From NCBI GenBank assembly GCA_052055015.1, contig JBQJIT010000019.1: DNA of 64,000 nucleotides; one strand, 5' to 3'. Below, one piece after another: positions 16,637 to 53,846 of this stretch. The position numbers were made by a program, and so were the translations under genes. The notes beneath the pieces were generated by a model that saw only the letters and a program-made list of their open reading frames with translations, had not been told where the DNA came from and ran no database searches. The stretch's first letter is position 1; each line of letters starts with the position of its first letter. The stretch is from Malassezia furfur (taxonomy: Eukaryota).

Positions 16637-19600
16637 ATGGACGATGCGGAGGCCGCCGCGCGGCGCCCCGAGGGCGCGCCCGACGAAGACGTGCCTATGA
16701 GTGAAGAGGAGGGGGAGGACCTTATGAAGGAGTCCGGCAACCTGGTGGGGATGGACAGCAGTGATGAGGAAGAGGAGGAAGAGGATGAAGAGGAGCAGCG
16801 CCGCGTCGCGGAAGGCTTCATCGTCGATGAGGACGAGGACGAAGAGACGCGGCATAAGCGCAAGCGGCGTCATCACCACCACCGTCGCCACGAGGTGGAT
16901 GACGAAGAGCTCGATGAGGACGACTTGGCGCTCCTGCAGGAGAACCAGGGACCCTCGGGCGGCGTCGATGGTCCACATAAGCGTGCGAGGCAGCACGCCG
17001 ACGAGCGCGACCGCGATCTTGCCCATATTTTTGATGACGAAGATGATGGCGAACAGCTTCCGTCAGTTGCGGGTGCAATTCGCGATAGCATGGCGGACGC
17101 GTCGCGTGCCGCTGACTACGACGACGACGAGCTCGACGACTTCATTGAGGACGATGAAGATGAAGAGATGCAGGGTCTAGACGAAGAGGCGCGCGAAGAG
17201 CGCCGTCGTGAGCGGCGTGAGGAGCGTCGGCGTGCGCGGCTGACGGGTCAGCGTGTTGATCCGCAAAAGGTCGGCATCGATCCCGAGGCCTGGGACGAGA
17301 TTCACGACATCTTTGGCAACGGCGAGGACTATGCGTGGGCGCTTGTTGCCGAAGAAGAAGAGGAGGAGGAAAAGAGGGGCAAGATGGAGTACAAAGATGT
17401 GCGTATGACGTGCGCGTGCTGACCACCAGATTTTTGAGCCGGCGCAAATCCAGGAGCGCATGCTCACCGAGGAGGACGATCGAATCAAGCAGATCGACAT
17501 TCCCGAGCGGCTGCAGCTTGCCCTGCCCGGGGTCGAGGGTTTGCATCTACTCGAGCGACCGCTATCTGACGCGGACCTCGACGAGGCGACACAGTGGGCT
17601 GCGCCGCGGATCTCTCCGCGGTGCACCGCTGAGTTCCTCGAGGAGGGTGCGGTGCACGCGCGCCTGCGCACCGAGTGGCAGCAGTGTGTGCGTCAGATGC
17701 TGCGCTACATGCTGAACGACTACCTGGAGGTGTCGTTCTTGACGCAGCATCGCCTCGACGAGCTGGAGCACACGCACTTTGACGAGGTGTTGCGCAAGCA
17801 CGAGACCACGACGCTACTCATGCGCCAAGAGCTGCTGACGCTCAGCTCGCTTGGTGTCAAATATAAGCTACTGCGTGCGCGCAAGGATGCGCTGCAGCAC
17901 ACGTTTGCGCAGCTGCATACGTCGCTTGGCGACGCTTTGCGCAGCGAAGATGTGGCGTACTTTGACGAGCTGCTTGCCCAGGCTGCGAGCTTCGAAGAGG
18001 TGTCGGACATCAATGAGTGGCTCGCGATGCGCTTCGGCGAGCGCTTCCGTGATGCGACGGCGCTTGCCGAAGCACAGCTGCTGGCCGGTCATGTGCTCAA
18101 GCGCCCGACGATCGTAAGCGAGTACGAGCGGTTGAAGGCGACGCCGGTCGCGCAGCTCGCCGCGCGCCTTGGTCTTGATGCGCAGCAGCTCGCGGCGAAC
18201 GTCGTGAGCGGTGTGCGGACGCACATCCCCGACGACCCTGCCGAGGGCCCTGCGGCGGTGGCCGATGCGTACGTTGATGCGTCGCGCGGTGTGACGACGC
18301 CGGAGCAGGCGCTGCAGCTGGCGCGCACGGTGCTGGCGCACGAGCTCGGTAAGGAGCCGCTGCTGCGCCGTGACGTGCGTGCGCAGTTCCGCGCCTCGGC
18401 GCTGCTGGACGTGGAGCCGACGGAGCGCGGCATGACGCGGATCGACGAGGCACATCCATACTACAACTTCAAGTTCCTGCGTGCCAAGCCGGTCGCGGCG
18501 ATCGTGCAGAACGCCTCGCAGTTCCTCCAGATCCTGCACGCCGAGGAGGAACGGCTGGTGCGCATTACACTGCGTCTGCCCACGGACGTCGCGAACCGCT
18601 TCGAGGCGCGGCTCCAGGAGCAGTACGTGAGTGAGGGTGTAAGCGACGTGTCGCAGCGCTGGAATGCGGAGCGTGCGGCGGTGGTCGAGGAGGCATGCGC
18701 CGCGTTCCTTTTGCCGCTCGGGCGTCTGTGGACGCGTGAGTGGCTTATGGAAGAGTGCCGCGATGCGCTGCTCCGCCACTGTGAGCAACAGCTCACGAGC
18801 CGCGTGGAGGGCGGCCCGTACCAGTCCTCGGGGATGGTGTCGCGCAACGGCGATCCGGCCATCGAAGAGATGGAGCACACCCCCCGCGTGCTCGCCGTGT
18901 CGCACGGCGTCGGTGACCCACGCAAGAGCGAGGTGGTCGCCGTGTTCCTCGATGAGCAGGGCCGCTTCTTGGAGCACGCGACATTTGACTCGCTGCGGGC
19001 GCCGACGCCCGCGGTGCTGGCGCAGCGTGCACAGGCGCTCGAGCGCGGCGAAACGCTCCCCGAAGACGCGCGCGAGCGGTTCATCGCGCTGCTCAAGCGC
19101 CGTCGGCCGGATGCGATCGTCGTGAACGGGTTTAGTGCGCGTGCCGCCGACCTCAAGGCGTCCGTCGTCGAGCTGAACCGTGCGGCGCTGAGCGAGCGCG
19201 TGCATGACGAGGGCTTGGAGGGTCTCGCGGTGGAGCACGCGCGTGCAGATGTCATCAGCGTGTTCGACGACGTCGCGCGGCTGTACCAGCACAGCGAGCG
19301 CGCTGCGCAGGAGTTCCCTGAGCTGAGCGTGCTTGCGCGCTACTGCATTGGTCTCGCGCGCTATGCCCAGTCGCCTGTGAACGAGTTTGCGGCGCTTGGT
19401 ACGGATCTGAGCGCGGTGCAGTTCGACCCCGCGCAGCGCTTGCTCCCGAGCGACCGGCTGCGCACGCACCTCGAGCGCGCCATTGTGATGCTGGTGAATG
19501 ACATTGGCGTGGACGTCAACGAGGCGGTGGTCAATCCGTACGCGCAGCACATGCTGCCGTATGTCGCCGGCCTGGGGCCGCGCAAGGCGCACGCGCTTGT

Positions 19601-21455: not shown

Positions 21456-24003
21456 CTACGTCTCTTCGGAGCGCTGGGCAGACGCAGATCGCTCGGGCGT
21501 CGGCACACGCCCATTGGCCTCGCCCGACGGCGCGCGCGGAGGCACATGCGATGTGCGCGCCGTAATCACATCAAGCAGCGAAATCCCCGTGCTCGATGCC
21601 GTGCCGGGCAGCGGGCGGCTGATACTCGTTTTGCCGCTGCCCCAACGCAAGTTGCGCCGCGCCGGCAGTCGCGTCGGCGCGTCGCCGGTCGACTCGGGTG
21701 CAGGTGATAGCCTGGGCGACGCTGCGTGCTCGTGCTTCACTTGCGACACTGTCTCGGGCGGCGTCGCATTGCCAGGCGCCTCGGTGGGCGTTGCTCCAGG
21801 CCCAGATGCCCGGTCAGGGGGCGTGACAGACGCGGGAGGCGTCGCAGGCCGCACAGCATTTGTCGACGCGCTCGGCGTGCGCCCGTGTGCGCGTTTGGGC
21901 GCTGTGGTGCGCGCAGCCGCTGCCCCCTTGGGAGGGCGCACACGCTCTATTGGCCGCGGCTCCGAAACGGCGCGCTGCGTGCGAGCCTGCTGCCGTGTGC
22001 GTCCCTCGACACCGCCGGACCAAAAGAGCGCAAGATTGGACACGGAGGTGCGCTCGGGTCCCTTGGTCGCGATCTGGGGTGAGGCGGGCGACGGCGACGG
22101 CGCATGCTCAATGGTCGACACACTCCGCTTGTGCGCCGCACTTGCCGAGGCAACAGGCGGTGTGGACGAGCGGGATGACGACGCGGGCACGGGCGTCGGC
22201 GTCTCGCGCTTGATCGGCTCCGATTTCATACGCATGCCGCGCGGCGGTGCCTCATGAGCTTTGGGCTTGGGTACACGCACCACCTGGGTCTGGACGGGTG
22301 CCGCAGGGGCAGTGCGACGGTCCGTCAGCGGCTCGGGATGCGGGTTGACTGGCCGACGCGCGCGCCGCTGTCCACTGGGCGCACCCCAGTAGGCGGCTAG
22401 CACATCCGTGCGGGCGTCATGGCCCAGAATGCGTGGAACCTGAGCAACTTTGCTCTCGTCAAAATCGCCGTCGCTGTCGTCGCTGCGCACTTCGTACTTG
22501 CGCCGCTTATGTCGCACGGCGGTTTTGGCGGACGCCGCATCATCCTCATCCCGTACTGTGCGGGCCTGTGCCTTGTGCGGCGACCGCGACCGTGGCTTCG
22601 GCGGTCTTGGCGGTGCGTCGATGTCCGAGCTGTCTTCTGCATCGGCGTTCAACGTCCGGATCGGGCTGAGCTTGACAGGCGATGTCTCGGCGCTGCTCAC
22701 CGACGAGTCGCTGAGCTGAAGGCGCTGCTTGGGTCCCCGCGGCGGCGGCGGCCGCGACGTCGGCGCACCACGTTTCAGTGGGCGCACGTTGGTATGGGAC
22801 TCGGCGGGGTTCTCGGAGGGACACCGGTTGGGCCAGTCCATCTTGTAGAGCTTGTAGTGCCGCTCGCACCGCGGACATTCGTCCGGCGTCCACCAACGCT
22901 CTGGCGCGCGAAAGGCCCCTTGACACGTGAGGCACGTGCATTCCGGCCCGAGCGCGTCGGGGTCCATGGCATATTGGATAGGACTCGAGGGCGCCGCGGG
23001 CTCGGCCTCGGTGGCTGCATGTTGTGTGGAGCTGCGCAAGGTACGTGCGTCCTTGGGCGGCGTGGTGTGCGCCGCCGTGCCGTTGGCACCGTGGGTGTCG
23101 CACGACACGTCGTTGTCGGGTGGCGCAAAAAAGCCGCGGTGCCGACGTTCGCAGGTGGCACACATGCACTCGCGATTGCCTGGCTCAAAGTAGTTTTCGC
23201 CATAAAACGTGGTGATTTCCTCATCGCGTCGGATGGGGCGGATGCACCGGATCGTCAGCTGGTGGCCCGAGCGCCGGAACTCGGCGTTCGGCTGGCAGTC
23301 ATGGTTGATAAAGCGCGCAGGGCCAAGCAGAAGCTGGCTCTGTTTGCGACTCGACGAGCGGATAATAGAAAAGTCGCGCTGGGGGCGTACTGGGCCGCTG
23401 CGAGGGTCTGCCGTGCGCGCCAGCATCGCTTCTTCGCGCAGCGCCTCGTCGTCAGCGCGCGTCAAGTCTTTCAGGGCCGCGCGGCAGTGCGTAATCACCT
23501 CGTCGGGCTGAAAGGAGCGCAGCGCCAGCACACACAGATCGGTACGGTCCGGCGCACGCGCTAGTGCGCCGTGCTCAACATGCTCGCGTCCGAGCGCCTC
23601 GATGCGCCGCCGCCGCGCCGTAGTGTATCGATGTGTGATGGCATACTCAAATCCGGCGTCGGGCAGGTATGCCTGCAGGTACCGCTGGACGTGCGCCTCG
23701 AAGACGCGCAGTTGCGCAGGCGTCTTGCGCTGGACGTGCTTGCGCACCACGGGGAGCCTGTGTGAGCATGCCGACGTACTGCATAAAAGCGGTGAGTGCG
23801 GCGGAAAGGTCGCGCTCCCATATAATGTGCTGCCGCACCAGTAGTGACACGACTTCACGGTCGAAGCGTGCGGGGCGCTGGTGCGGGTTCATTTTGTGCG
23901 TCGCGATCGCAGGCTCAAACTCGAGCGTGCTGGGTGAGCGCAGGACGACGTACTCGAGCAGCATGCAGGAAAGCAGATCGTCATCTGCCGGGAGCTCGTC
24001 CAT
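21456..24003 (-). CDS. SET9: Histone H4K20 methyltransferase Set9 (introns 23930-23953, 23758-23779)
   Basis: DFSII.SS, LLGPARFINHDC, EEITTFYGENYF and post-SET CMCATCE. Confidence 0.88.
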
Positions 24004-38614: not shown

Positions 38615-39432
38615 TTAGGCAGTAGCCTCCTTCGCGCTCTTGCCCGACTTGCGCTCGAGCAGCGCAGTGCTATCGGTTAGAACACCACGACATCGGGCAA
38701 TACATACCGGTCCTTGTCCATCTTGATCTTGGTGATCACCACGTTCGACGGGTGGATGGGGATCGCGACAGTCGCGCCGTTCACCTTCTCGCGCTGGAGG
38801 CGCTCGAGGTGCACAACCCACTTCTTGCGGTAGACCTGCACGACACGGCCCTCCGAGCCGACCGACGAACCACGCACAACAACGACCTCGTCATCCTTGC
38901 GGATGGGAAGCGAGCGGATCTGTAGGGTTAGTAACTGCATCGCATGGAAACGATCGAAACGGTAAGGGCAAGAGAGAAGCGAAACTCGGAGGACATGGTC
39001 GACAATCGTGGGTAATATAATTCGCAGCAGGTAGATGACGGGAAATGGTCATAAGAACATGGATGTCCTTGACTCGATCCGACACATCATGCAAGACGAA
39101 TGACAGATCCACACGACGATGAAAAAATTGACCATAGTTCGCAAGCAGATCATGTCCGTCGTGTCCCAACAAGCTCGTTTAAATTGGTTGCATGCAAGCA
39201 ATAAAGCAAAAGAAGCGCTCACAGGAGCATCCCTTTTCCACGCTCGCACATGCGACCAAGGTCCTCCAAGAACCGCCTTCGCACGCCCCTCCCTGTTTCG
39301 ATCGTTAGCAATACGTACACCGTGCTCCTTACGCAGCTCCTTGTTCAGAGGAGCCGACATGATCTTCCTCCTGATGTGACCCGGGGCATCGAAGTGGGCC
39401 TTGCGGTTGACACGACGCGAGGAGCTGACCAT
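38615..39432 (-). CDS. RPL26: 60S ribosomal protein L26/uL24 (introns 38920-39318, 38670-38707)
   Basis: [51 protein letters not shown] small upstream exon cannot be excluded. Confidence 0.93.
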
Positions 39433-39657
39433 GATGATATGTGCCTTGAGACGTTGGTCGTGAAGCACGGCTCGAAGAGCCACTGGCGCGAGGACCGTCC
39501 GTACTAGCATATCACGTGATACCCCTTAGCAACTGTATGTTCGAGGGGTGTATTAGGTCATGCTGATAAAATATTACGCAAATTGCCATCGGCGATGGAC
39601 GTGCACTACGTGGGGGTGGGCCTACCAGAGCACGCAGTGGTGGTGGGACGAATGGGT

Positions 39658-45688: not shown

Positions 45689-47272
45689 CTACGTCGCATG
45701 TACATCGTAGCGTGCCACGCGGCCGTGCCGCGCGAGGTGGGCGTGGAGGTCGTTGAGGCGCGTCGCCTCGGCCTCGAGGGAGTCGATCGATTCGTGAAGG
45801 TGTTCGGCAAGGATCCGGCGTTTCATGCGGTCCATGGTGGGGTCCATGCGTTTGAGCTCGTCTGCGAGCTCCGAGTAGAGCCGCTTTTGGTGCAGGAACT
45901 CGCGGCGGTGCTGCTCGAATACCTGCTCCAGCACGCGCAGCTCGGCGTCCGAAAGGAAAGGCGCCGGCGACTCTTGCAGGCGACGGAGAAGGACCTCGCT
46001 CGTGATGTCCGCGGCCTCGCGCGAACGCAAGCCGGCACGGATCCGGTCCTTGCGCGAGCGCCTCAGGTGTGCGTCTGGGCTGGTGGGCAGTCCCATGGCC
46101 TCGGCCACGGCACGGCAGACTTGTTCGTAGCGCTCCTGGGTCGAGTGGATGTTGTTCCGCGCAGAGTCTGGAGCGTGCGGTAGGTCTGGGGTGCGCCAGG
46201 AGGCGTCGTCGGCGTGCGTGGGCACGGCGCGGCTCGGTTCGAAACGAGTCGGGCCCGCTTGCCACGGGGAGTGGCTCGGTTTTTCGTACGGCGGCGTGAG
46301 TGGCGCGCCCCGGCGGGAGGCAGACGCAGGACCCTGGAGCTGTTCGAGAGTGTGTGAGATGCGCGCAAGCTCCTCGTAGAGCCGTGCGATGGTCGTCGCC
46401 ATCTCGGGGCCTGTCTCGGCTGCAGGCGATGGACGAGGACTGCGAACGGGTGGGTCAGACCGTGGTGCGCCCTGCAGCGCAGATGCGAGCTGGCGCGCGA
46501 GGCGATCCATCGGCTCAGGCACGCACTGGGCCTCGTGCGCGCGGAAGGATGTAGTGAGGTGCGCAAGCTCCTGCTTGTGTGCGTCAACCTCAGCTTCCAG
46601 CGCCGAGGTGCGCTGCATCAGCGCCTCGAGCCCCGTCTTGGCCAAAGGTGTCCCCGAGCGGATCTCACTTACTTCGCGCTCCATGTTGCGGATGCACGAG
46701 ACGAGCGCCTCGAGCTGGTGCTCGGCCCACCGTACGTGTTCGGGGAGGTGCGCCGGGGTTTCCTCGTTCACCTTGGTCTCGGCGCTGGAGTGCCGGCTGC
46801 CCTGGGGGCTGGGCCCGCGTGTATGGGTGCGCGGCGGAGCTGGCGGCTTGGCGGGAACGTCGTCATCCGAGGCGTCCTCGACGCGTGCGATGCGCGAAAT
46901 GTCGAGGTGCTCCTTCGCCTCGCGGCTCAGGCGCGGACGGACGTGATGGTTCAGGCGGCGCCCCTTGTCGCGCGGCGTCGCGAGGAACACAGTGTGGTTC
47001 CCGGTAGACTGTGAGAGCAGGTGTGGAATCTGATCTTCGTCGGACGTCTCAGAGGCCTCCGAGTCGCTGGTACGGCGCGCGCGCGCGAGGCGACGGGCGT
47101 ACGCCTTGCGCGTCGTGCTGTGACGCAGGCTGTTTTCGTCGATGAACGAGCTGGTGCGCACACGTTCCGGTGCATCAAATTGCATGTCGAGCTCGCGTTC
47201 GACGTCACGCCTGTGCTGCTCCTCGGCGGACGCCGGGATGGAGAACGAGGCGCCGAGACGCGCCCACGACAT
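45689..47272 (-). CDS. Coiled-coil protein with a Cep57/Ppc89-like C-terminal microtubule-binding domain
   Basis: C-terminal EFLHQKRLYSELADELKRMD..KRRILAEHL..IDSLE pattern. Confidence 0.55.
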   Translation of the reverse strand: MSWARLGASFSIPASAEEQHRRDVERELDMQFDAPERVRTSSFIDENSLRHSTTRKAYARRLARARRTSDSEASETSDEDQIPHLLSQSTGNHTVFLATPRDKGRRLNHHVRPRLSREAKEHLDISRIARVEDASDDDVPAKPPAPPRTHTRGPSPQGSRHSSAETKVNEETPAHLPEHVRWAEHQLEALVSCIRNMEREVSEIRSGTPLAKTGLEALMQRTSALEAEVDAHKQELAHLTTSFRAHEAQCVPEPMDRLARQLASALQGAPRSDPPVRSPRPSPAAETGPEMATTIARLYEELARISHTLEQLQGPASASRRGAPLTPPYEKPSHSPWQAGPTRFEPSRAVPTHADDASWRTPDLPHAPDSARNNIHSTQERYEQVCRAVAEAMGLPTSPDAHLRRSRKDRIRAGLRSREAADITSEVLLRRLQESPAPFLSDAELRVLEQVFEQHRREFLHQKRLYSELADELKRMDPTMDRMKRRILAEHLHESIDSLEAEATRLNDLHAHLARHGRVARYDVHAT

Positions 47273-53764: not shown

Positions 53765-53846
53765 TGCGCCAAGGGGGAATCGAACCCCCGGCACAGCTAC
53801 ATCTTTGCGATGGCAAAGCTGTATTTTACCACTAAACCATTGGCGC
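53765..53846 (-). tRNA. tRNA-Gly(GCC) with an ~11-nt intron
   Basis: GCGCCAA/TTGGCGC acceptor stem, TGGTTTAGTGGTAAAA D-arm, CAGCT-TTGCCA..T-AGCTG anticodon arm, GGGGGTTCGATTCCCCC T-arm and a downstream T-run. 82 nt minus 11 gives 71 nt. Confidence 0.93.

Follow-up and report, generated by a model that had tools for sequence, protein, structure and literature searches.

How does a spliceosome tuned to donor-to-branch spacings of about 17–30 nt, as in the genomes of organisms with ultra-short introns, manage the rare long intron? The RPL26 (uL24) gene of Malassezia furfur, a three-exon gene on the minus strand of the 64,000-nucleotide (64-kb) stretch of DNA analysed here, which we call the window, poses this question with its first intron (Table 1), and the answer suggested by the locus is that the long intron folds into a mini-intron. 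Short introns are the published norm in the genus: Table 2 of PMC5389616 gives a mean intron size of 30 bp for M. sympodialis, and PMC7426719 speaks of ‘very short introns’ in Malassezia. The tiny introns of the window agree with these sizes. Our literature searches found no paper joining Malassezia, the spliceosome and the branch point, and among the matches listed the titles and abstract openings held nothing on nuclear intron structure in Malassezia.

Table 1. Coordinates of the RPL26 features in the window (all on the minus strand; the arms and the central segment are those of the predicted fold).
Feature	Position	Strand	Details
Exon 1, coding	39319..39432	(-)	ATG at 39432-39430; 38 aa, C-terminal end KEHG; Pfam Ribosomal_L26
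Intron 1	38920..39318	(-)	399 nt, phase 0, GTACGT...TACTAACCCTACAG
26-nt mini-intron-like module	39293..39318	(-)	donor GTACGT 39318-39313, CTAAC 39308-39304, CAG 39295-39293
Extended rod, 5' arm	39244..39318	(-)	intron nt 1-75; MFE structure
Core stem, 5' arm	39295..39306	(-)	intron nt 13-24; pair probabilities 0.87-1.0
Central 238 nt pinched off by rod	39006..39243	(-)	fold z -1.25
Extended rod, 3' arm	38937..39005	(-)	intron nt 314-382; ends 3 nt before UACUAAC
Core stem, 3' arm	38949..38960	(-)	intron nt 359-370
Distal branch TACTAAC	38927..38933	(-)	branch A = intron nt 391, 8 nt before 3' end
True 3' splice site CAG	38920..38922	(-)	from sequence, homologue contiguity and Pfam continuity
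Exon 2	38708..38919	(-)	212 nt; includes KOW motif; Ribosomal_L26 from profile position 37
Intron 2	38670..38707	(-)	38 nt; usual local layout, branch A +31, 7 nt to 3' end
Exon 3, coding	38615..38669	(-)	stop TAA 38617-38615

The local rules of intron layout come from a strict census of the window, which counted an intron only if it had a consensus donor, a branch of the form CTRAY and a YAG acceptor, if each flank carried an open frame of at least 40 codons, and if its retention would bring a stop within 30 codons. This census took the place of one of ORF continuity lacking the branch criterion, which gave many false positives in GC-rich DNA. The strict census yields 18 introns of 22–61 nt, two of them with a common acceptor. 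The branch A lies at +17 to +56 in all 18, and the 3' end follows the branch by 4–7 nt in 16 of them. The usual intron here has 22–35 nt and a branch A about 17–31 nt from the donor. That introns at the lower end of this range are real is seen in the neighbouring SAR1 gene, where the Pfam Arf profile continues unbroken across introns of 22 and 26 nt and so verifies them. Other long introns were sought in the window as donors lying 70–900 nt from a branch and acceptor, and the five candidates were judged implausible; the scan is non-exhaustive, its filter having missed the true RPL26 intron owing to a 95-codon open frame that lies inside it.

At the level of sequence, the productive junction of intron 1 is confirmed as 39319|38919. 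The Ribosomal_L26 profile runs across it unbroken, exon 1 matching to position 36 (E 9.8e-15, profile positions 1–36) and exon 2 resuming at position 37, and exon 2 also carries a Pfam KOW domain match (E 2.4e-6). Both exons are contiguous in intronless homologues from metagenomes, and the homologous introns that were extracted at the predicted boundaries have the printed ends GT...AG. The intron ends in TACTAACCCTACAG at 38920 and has a GC content of 0.49 versus 0.61 for the whole window. For comparison we used 80 RPL26 loci from metagenome contigs (best 74% amino-acid identity, conserved exon 2), none of which is near enough for alignment of the intron. The position of intron 1 is occupied by introns of 48–59 nt in fungal-like loci and of 136–573 nt elsewhere, and is empty in many, a distribution by which the position is ancient.

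Intron 1 contains just two CTRAY motifs, the distal branch sequence and a proximal CTAAC that belongs to a striking arrangement at the very start of the intron. Directly after exon 1 stands GTACGTATTGCTAACGATCGAAACAG (39318-39293), a complete module of donor, CTAAC and CAG in 26 nt, as the earlier note on this DNA had described it. That note had also claimed that splicing to the proximal CAG would continue the protein as GGACEGG... and run into an early TAA, and translation bears this out, with 37 residues and then TAA. Its further description of the module as of locally typical size holds for the length, introns of 22 and 26 nt being real here, and fails for the layout: the branch A of the module lies at intron +14, 3 nt nearer the donor than in any census intron (+17 to +56 in 18 of 18), and 12 nt separate it from the module's 3' end, where 16 of the 18 census introns have 4–7 nt. 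Chance would place such a module right behind a donor in about 1.3% of cases with CTRAY and in 0.12% with the exact CTAAC; these estimates are per donor, under the composition of the intron, and post hoc. The CTAAC...CAG module may thus, by its low chance, have a reason for its presence beyond the reading as a zipper that we develop below, and we refer to it as the decoy.

The second element of the intron is structural. AACGATCGAAAC (39306-39295) and GTTTCGATCGTT (38960-38949) form a perfect 12-bp inverted repeat, which the earlier note had pointed out correctly and which has a duplex energy of -15.6 kcal/mol. In the predicted fold, this repeat serves as the perfectly paired core of a rod that extends much further, to about 58 bp. 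The two arms of the minimum free energy (MFE) structure are joined by 58 pairs, 9 of them G.U, the longest perfect run being 12 bp; aligned as DNA, the arms (75 and 69 nt) have 51 matches, 16 mismatches and 10 gaps. A perfect stem of at least 12 bp arises anywhere in the intron in 1 of 500 dinucleotide shuffles, and end to end in none of 500. Across the 64 kb of the window, 14 inverted-repeat pairs with seeds of at least 11 nt lie within 900 nt of each other, and by arithmetic about three perfect 12-mer inverted repeats within 900 nt are expected. Since 12-bp repeats are not rare window-wide, the weight of the observation comes from the position of the repeat and from the extended rod.

The MFE of the whole intron is -145.7 kcal/mol (z -5.04), equalled by none of 100 shuffles, and the duplex of the two arms has -77.3 kcal/mol versus -40.9 +/- 4.8 for shuffled arms (z -7.5), a value that none of 500 shuffles reaches. 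Among 1590 genomic arm pairs of the same spacing a single one is as low, and that pair has a GC content of 0.74 versus 0.55 for the rod; after regression on GC, the rod has a z of -6.5 versus a background extreme of -4.0. The central 238 nt fold with no significant structure (z -1.25, 24 of 200 shuffles as low), which places the surplus structure in the rod rather than the interior. Nor is the rod a shared feature of the ancient intron position, since 12 long introns at the same position (at least 120 nt, from distant eukaryote loci) have no unusual structure (z -2.05 to +0.48). A search of Rfam gave no match in the intron at E up to 1, the rRNA models included. With Rfam empty at this threshold and C/D boxes (RUGAUGA, CUGA) likewise lacking, a role as host of an intronic snoRNA was rejected.

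Is the rod a property of the RNA, or the trace of a palindrome in the DNA? At the non-complementary positions of the arm alignment, which was made at the DNA level with wobble ignored, there are 8 G.U pairs, no A.C and 8 transversion-type mismatches. Neutral decay of a DNA palindrome is expected to give G.U and A.C equally, and the 8:0 split has a one-sided binomial probability of 0.004 against such equal decay. The strands also differ in their folding, the sense intron reaching -145.7 kcal/mol (z -5.04) and the antisense -116.6 kcal/mol (z -2.27). The excess of G.U and the asymmetry between sense and antisense indicate constraint on the RNA, rather than a DNA palindrome, and so point to a rod under RNA-level constraint.

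The predicted ensemble assigns opposite fates to the two sets of splice signals. The branch A of the decoy, A14, is unpaired with p = 0.01, and of the proximal CAG the residues C24 and G26 are paired while A25 is bulged, whereas the distal UACUAAC and CAG are open (unpaired 0.67–0.99). The earlier note had proposed that the stem covers the proximal branch and the run-up to its acceptor and that it brings the donor beside the true branch, and the folds predict both, the second because the rod stops just short of UACUAAC. The donor itself is paired in the MFE structure and the ensemble, with an unpaired probability of 0–0.2, and in the model such pairing at the base of the rod could mean inhibition rather than help. 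Forcing the donor open, as if bound by U1, costs only 6 kcal/mol and leaves the core stem in place. The core starts at nt 13, with G1 lying 12 nt upstream; from its far end it is 20 nt to A391 and 15 nt to UACUAAC, so that with the core and the inner rod only, about 12 nt (1–12) plus 20 nt (371–390) of single strand connect the donor to the branch A. This zipped linker of about 32 nt is inside the local natural range, and the unzipped one of 390 nt is far outside it.

Based on the geometry, the statistics of the rod and the signs of RNA-level constraint, we put forward a hypothetical mechanism toward which we lean, in which the rod is a zipper-type structural splicing enhancer that makes the long intron mini-intron-like and silences the decoy. 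Specifically, nt 1–75 would pair with nt 314–382 and pinch off the central 238 nt, and the rod would thereby bring the 5' splice site right up to the true UACUAAC, 8 nt from the CAG acceptor. Once zipped, about 12 plus 20 nt of single strand would part the donor from the branch A, which would give a 399-nt intron the geometry of a local mini-intron. The same helix would bury the sole other consensus branch (CTAAC, A at +14) along with the nearest CAG downstream of it, so that a decoy that might trap branch-recognition factors or yield a frame-shifted substrate of nonsense-mediated decay (NMD) would be silenced once the intron is complete. We infer that the rod probably forms in vivo and promotes splicing, the decoy being either weak or not used. 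Counting against this proposal are the absence of such a rod from same-position introns elsewhere, the pairing of the donor in the MFE structure, the low chance of the decoy module, and a rod length several times what bringing the sites together would take.

Zipper stems of this kind are described in S. cerevisiae for RPS17B, RPL7A, RPS11A and others (Rangan et al., PMC12350175). In that account a high-confidence zipper stem has a minimum of 6 bp, modelling of the A complex calls for a donor-branch linker of at least 42 nt, and the functional criterion is promotion of splicing, supported by mutation and rescue in RPS17B and RPL7B (PMC12350175). The likeness to the RPL26 intron is close: in both, a helix within a long ribosomal protein gene intron joins the segment after the 5' splice site with the segment before the branch, shortening the effective donor-branch distance and leaving the branch and the 3' splice site open, in our case by prediction. 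When the yeast definition is applied point by point, the predicted pairing joins the post-donor region with the region before the branch sequence, which starts at nt 386, and the core provides 12 perfect bp with high confidence, a confidence that is computational instead of coming from DMS bootstrapping. The weaker outer pairs of nt 1–10 with nt 373–382, if formed, breach both placement limits of the definition, and the core taken alone starts at nt 13. The linkers of about 12 + 20 = 32 nt fall short of the 42-nt floor. As introns of 22 nt are spliced here, the yeast floor cannot hold in this host; because of that shortfall we nevertheless call the rod a variant, rather than a member, of the zipper stem as defined in yeast, one that in its modelled form would answer to the functional definition. 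It differs from the yeast stems in its size (about 58 bp and -77 kcal/mol, versus a 6-bp minimum), in the shorter linkers, in a host genome whose normal introns have 22–35 nt, and in the reach of its base, which also takes in the donor and hides a decoy branch.

For the covering of misleading sites there is a parallel in RPS23B and RPL34A, where stems are reported to occlude cryptic 3' splice sites (PMC12350175). As in these genes, the RPL26 stem covers a consensus CAG that leads to a wrong product. The occluded sites of RPS23B and RPL34A are found downstream of the true branch, ahead of the true acceptor, whereas in RPL26 both a branch and an acceptor are occluded at the 5' end of the intron, as parts of a complete nested intron with the authentic donor, and it is the zipper itself that covers them.

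The first of the alternatives concerns where the rod came from, and we regard it as unlikely, though it is compatible with a zipper function today. It holds that a foldback or MITE-like element, about 358 nt in size and bounded by long terminal inverted repeats, was inserted into an ordinary intron of about 41 nt, that the rod represents the element termini, that the decoy CTAAC and CAG are an accident of the joint between old intron and element, and that nothing was selected, the insertion having been tolerated since it zips itself out. Such an element would explain arms of about 70 nt around a perfect 12-bp core and an unstructured centre, an intron that is AT-richer than the window, the lack of a rod in same-position introns elsewhere and the overlap of the decoy branch with the end of the stem. 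Arithmetic is also in its favour, in that removal of nt 13–370 leaves 41 nt of typical layout, with the branch A at +33 and 8 nt to the 3' end. On the other hand, neither the termini nor any part of the intron recurs within the 64-kb window, and there is no target-site duplication, the flanks of the arms (...TTGCT and TCCAT...) not being a direct repeat. The pairing runs beyond the 12-bp core into the donor, and the G.U to A.C ratio of 8:0 and the strand asymmetry indicate selection at the RNA level, possibly after insertion.

A second alternative gives the decoy a function, and we consider it rather improbable. Here the rod is a regulated switch: when it is opened or kept from forming, for instance through a surplus of Rpl26 or the action of a helicase, splicing removes the 26-nt mini-intron, translation stops after 37 codons and the transcript goes to NMD, and when it is formed, productive splicing wins, the net effect being autoregulation of RPL26. 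Consensus donor, exact CTAAC and CAG are all in place at the low chance given above, the predicted stem covers the proximal branch A and acceptor, the poison frame is confirmed, and introns of 22–26 nt are spliced in this host. The unusual position of the decoy branch at +14 has a counterpart in SAR1, where the sole consensus branch motif of the verified 22-nt intron is a CTGAC at +8 to +12 with its A at +11, nearer the donor still; if that motif is used, very short donor-branch distances are possible for the decoy too. The other candidate branch of that intron, CTTAT, departs from the consensus and stands where branches usually lie, and in the census none of the 18 introns has its branch A at +16 or below, which with the atypical 12 nt to the acceptor speaks against use of the decoy.

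The order of transcription, too, weighs against the switch. Transcription completes the mini-intron 333 nt before it reaches the end of the 3' masking arm's absence at nt 359, and nascent prefixes of 30–358 nt are predicted to leave both the decoy branch A and its CAG open for the most part (0.27–0.92). Since the masking arm is absent for these roughly 333 nt, the stem cannot meanwhile shield a mini-intron that is competent for splicing; constitutive use of such a mini-intron would follow, which would be costly for a gene of high expression. Energetics are no kinder to the proposal, as opening nt 9–26 costs 21 kcal/mol with the remaining rod persisting, and no competing fold appears. The absence of an Rfam match, rRNA models included, also suggests no rRNA-mimic binding site. 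As a thermodynamic switch the rod was examined in forced-open folds, which contained no competing alternative fold, and this version was rejected. There is also a kinetic or protein-operated version, in which a 3' arm that is absent or blocked, for instance by free Rpl26 or a helicase, would let the mini-intron be removed and the RNA enter NMD, while formation of the rod would rescue the transcript for productive splicing; we find it slightly more doubtful again.

Unproductive splicing coupled to NMD occurs in ribosomal protein genes, as in rpl-12 and others of C. elegans and RPL3 and RPL12 of human, and the predicted proximal product of RPL26 is likewise a ribosomal protein transcript with a premature stop; those cases have experimentally observed alternative junctions and conserved alternative sites, whereas the RPL26 junction is a predicted one. 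Regulation through intron structure is described for RPL7B, RPL18B, RPL28 and RPS22B, and in S. cerevisiae overexpression is reported to lower GFP fusions of both RPL26A and RPL26B, each by over half a log (bioRxiv 10.1101/2020.05.11.089300), for which the authors of that study suggest protein degradation. By analogy, RPL7B is the nearest precedent for a switch. Like RPL26, its intron 1 belongs to a ribosomal protein gene and has a zipper stem, which is reported as a required splicing enhancer (bioRxiv 10.1101/2025.03.14.643126), and there regulation works by preventing the stem. What switches RPL7B is a conserved alternative fold, incompatible with the stem, to which Rpl7 binds, and the outcome is unspliced RNA. 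In RPL26 an alternative structure was not found in the forced-open folds, and use of a nested mini-intron as the outcome is without precedent in the RPL7B system. Taken together, the structural half of the earlier note, in which the proximal sites are hidden and the donor and the true branch are apposed, is supported by the predicted folds and their statistics; the balance of evidence is against its regulatory half, the poison-splicing switch or recursion, and autoregulation of RPL26 via the intron is not established.

The surplus length of the rod leads to a further alternative, in which the rod is a target of a protein or a nuclease independently of the mini-intron. Either free Rpl26 would bind it and block splicing, as in RPL30 or RPL7B, or the rod would serve as a double-stranded substrate of RNase III for clearing unspliced pre-mRNA or the excised lariat. 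RNase III cleaves introns of ribosomal protein genes in yeast. The predicted sequestration of the donor at the base of the rod, and the fact that about 58 bp far exceed the helix needed for apposition, are as this alternative would have it, and intron structures needed for autoregulation of RPL18B and RPS22B are reported in PMC13232506. We hold it to be a distant prospect nonetheless, given a longest perfect run of only 12 bp, no specific motif and no Rfam match. Recursive removal in two steps, the mini-intron first and the remainder of the intron second, has the presence of the proximal module as its only point in favour and is scarcely credible, because the first-step junction ...GGT|GGAGGG regenerates no consensus donor, use of the GT inside exon 1 as donor would lose 2 coding bases, and the sole other donor-like site, GUGAGC at nt 97, would leave a 70-nt insert with a frameshift.

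The essence of our proposed mechanism, the zipper that turns a long intron into a local mini-intron, reaches beyond RPL26 if it applies elsewhere. Were it true of other long introns in ultra-short-intron genomes, zipper stems would be obligatory there, beyond a mere aid to splicing, and if it is general, the linker lengths would read out the geometric limits of the compact spliceosome. The nested decoy also makes a clean natural experiment on how short a donor-branch distance can be. The switch, if true, would mean autoregulation by a complete intron nested in the 5' end of a longer one, within the miniaturised splicing of a fungus.

The first intron of RPL26 (399 nt) occupies an ancient position, at which intron length differs widely between loci. 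In eight RPL26 loci of distant eukaryotes, recovered from metagenome contigs (L004, L009, L014, L016, L020, L021, L058, and L059), an intron interrupts the gene at precisely this codon position and is 478-573 nt long, and in the fungal-like RPL26 loci the intron found there measures 48-59 nt. If intron 1 were fully retained, the reading frame of exon 1 would stay open for about 89 more codons into the intron, so that translation would not end early but would yield an aberrant product of considerable length.

Raw duplex energies in this Malassezia furfur window must be corrected for GC content before the predicted ~58-bp rod of intron 1 (arm duplex -77.3 kcal/mol) is compared with other sequence. 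Three coding stretches with a GC content of 0.71-0.74 give arm-duplex energies of -76 to -82 kcal/mol, and these low values are due to composition alone.

Features located in the window
Feature	Coordinates	Strand	Remark
GC-rich coding stretch	22721-23102	+	arm duplex as low as RPL26 rod
GC-rich coding stretch	18961-19342	+	arm duplex as low as RPL26 rod
GC-rich coding stretch	46161-46542	+	arm duplex as low as RPL26 rod
Stop-to-stop frame	39052-39525	minus	158 codons; exon 1 frame plus part of intron 1
SAR1-type small GTPase gene	40514-39800	minus	immediately upstream of RPL26
22-nt SAR1 intron	40124-40103	minus	verified by Arf profile continuity
26-nt SAR1 intron	40216-40191	minus	verified by Arf profile continuity
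Single tRNA gene	53765-53846	minus	Rfam 57.5 bits

The tRNA gene, to which ARAGORN assigned a length of 82 nt, an undetermined identity, and an “anticodon” of two bases, probably contains an intron.

Across the whole window the branch-to-acceptor distance is nearly constant, at 4-7 nt in 16 of the 18 ORF-supported census introns, and the shortest introns are 22 nt; these miniaturised introns resemble the layout published for Malassezia. Within the SAR1-type gene the tiny introns number six or more, with lengths of 48, 56, 31, 26, 22, and 34 nt. In its 22-nt intron the only consensus branch motif is CTGAC at +8 to +12, the usual branch position being held by the non-consensus CTTAT, and the 26-nt intron has no consensus branch anywhere along its length. 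These two introns would lend themselves well to establishing how short the donor-branch distance can be.
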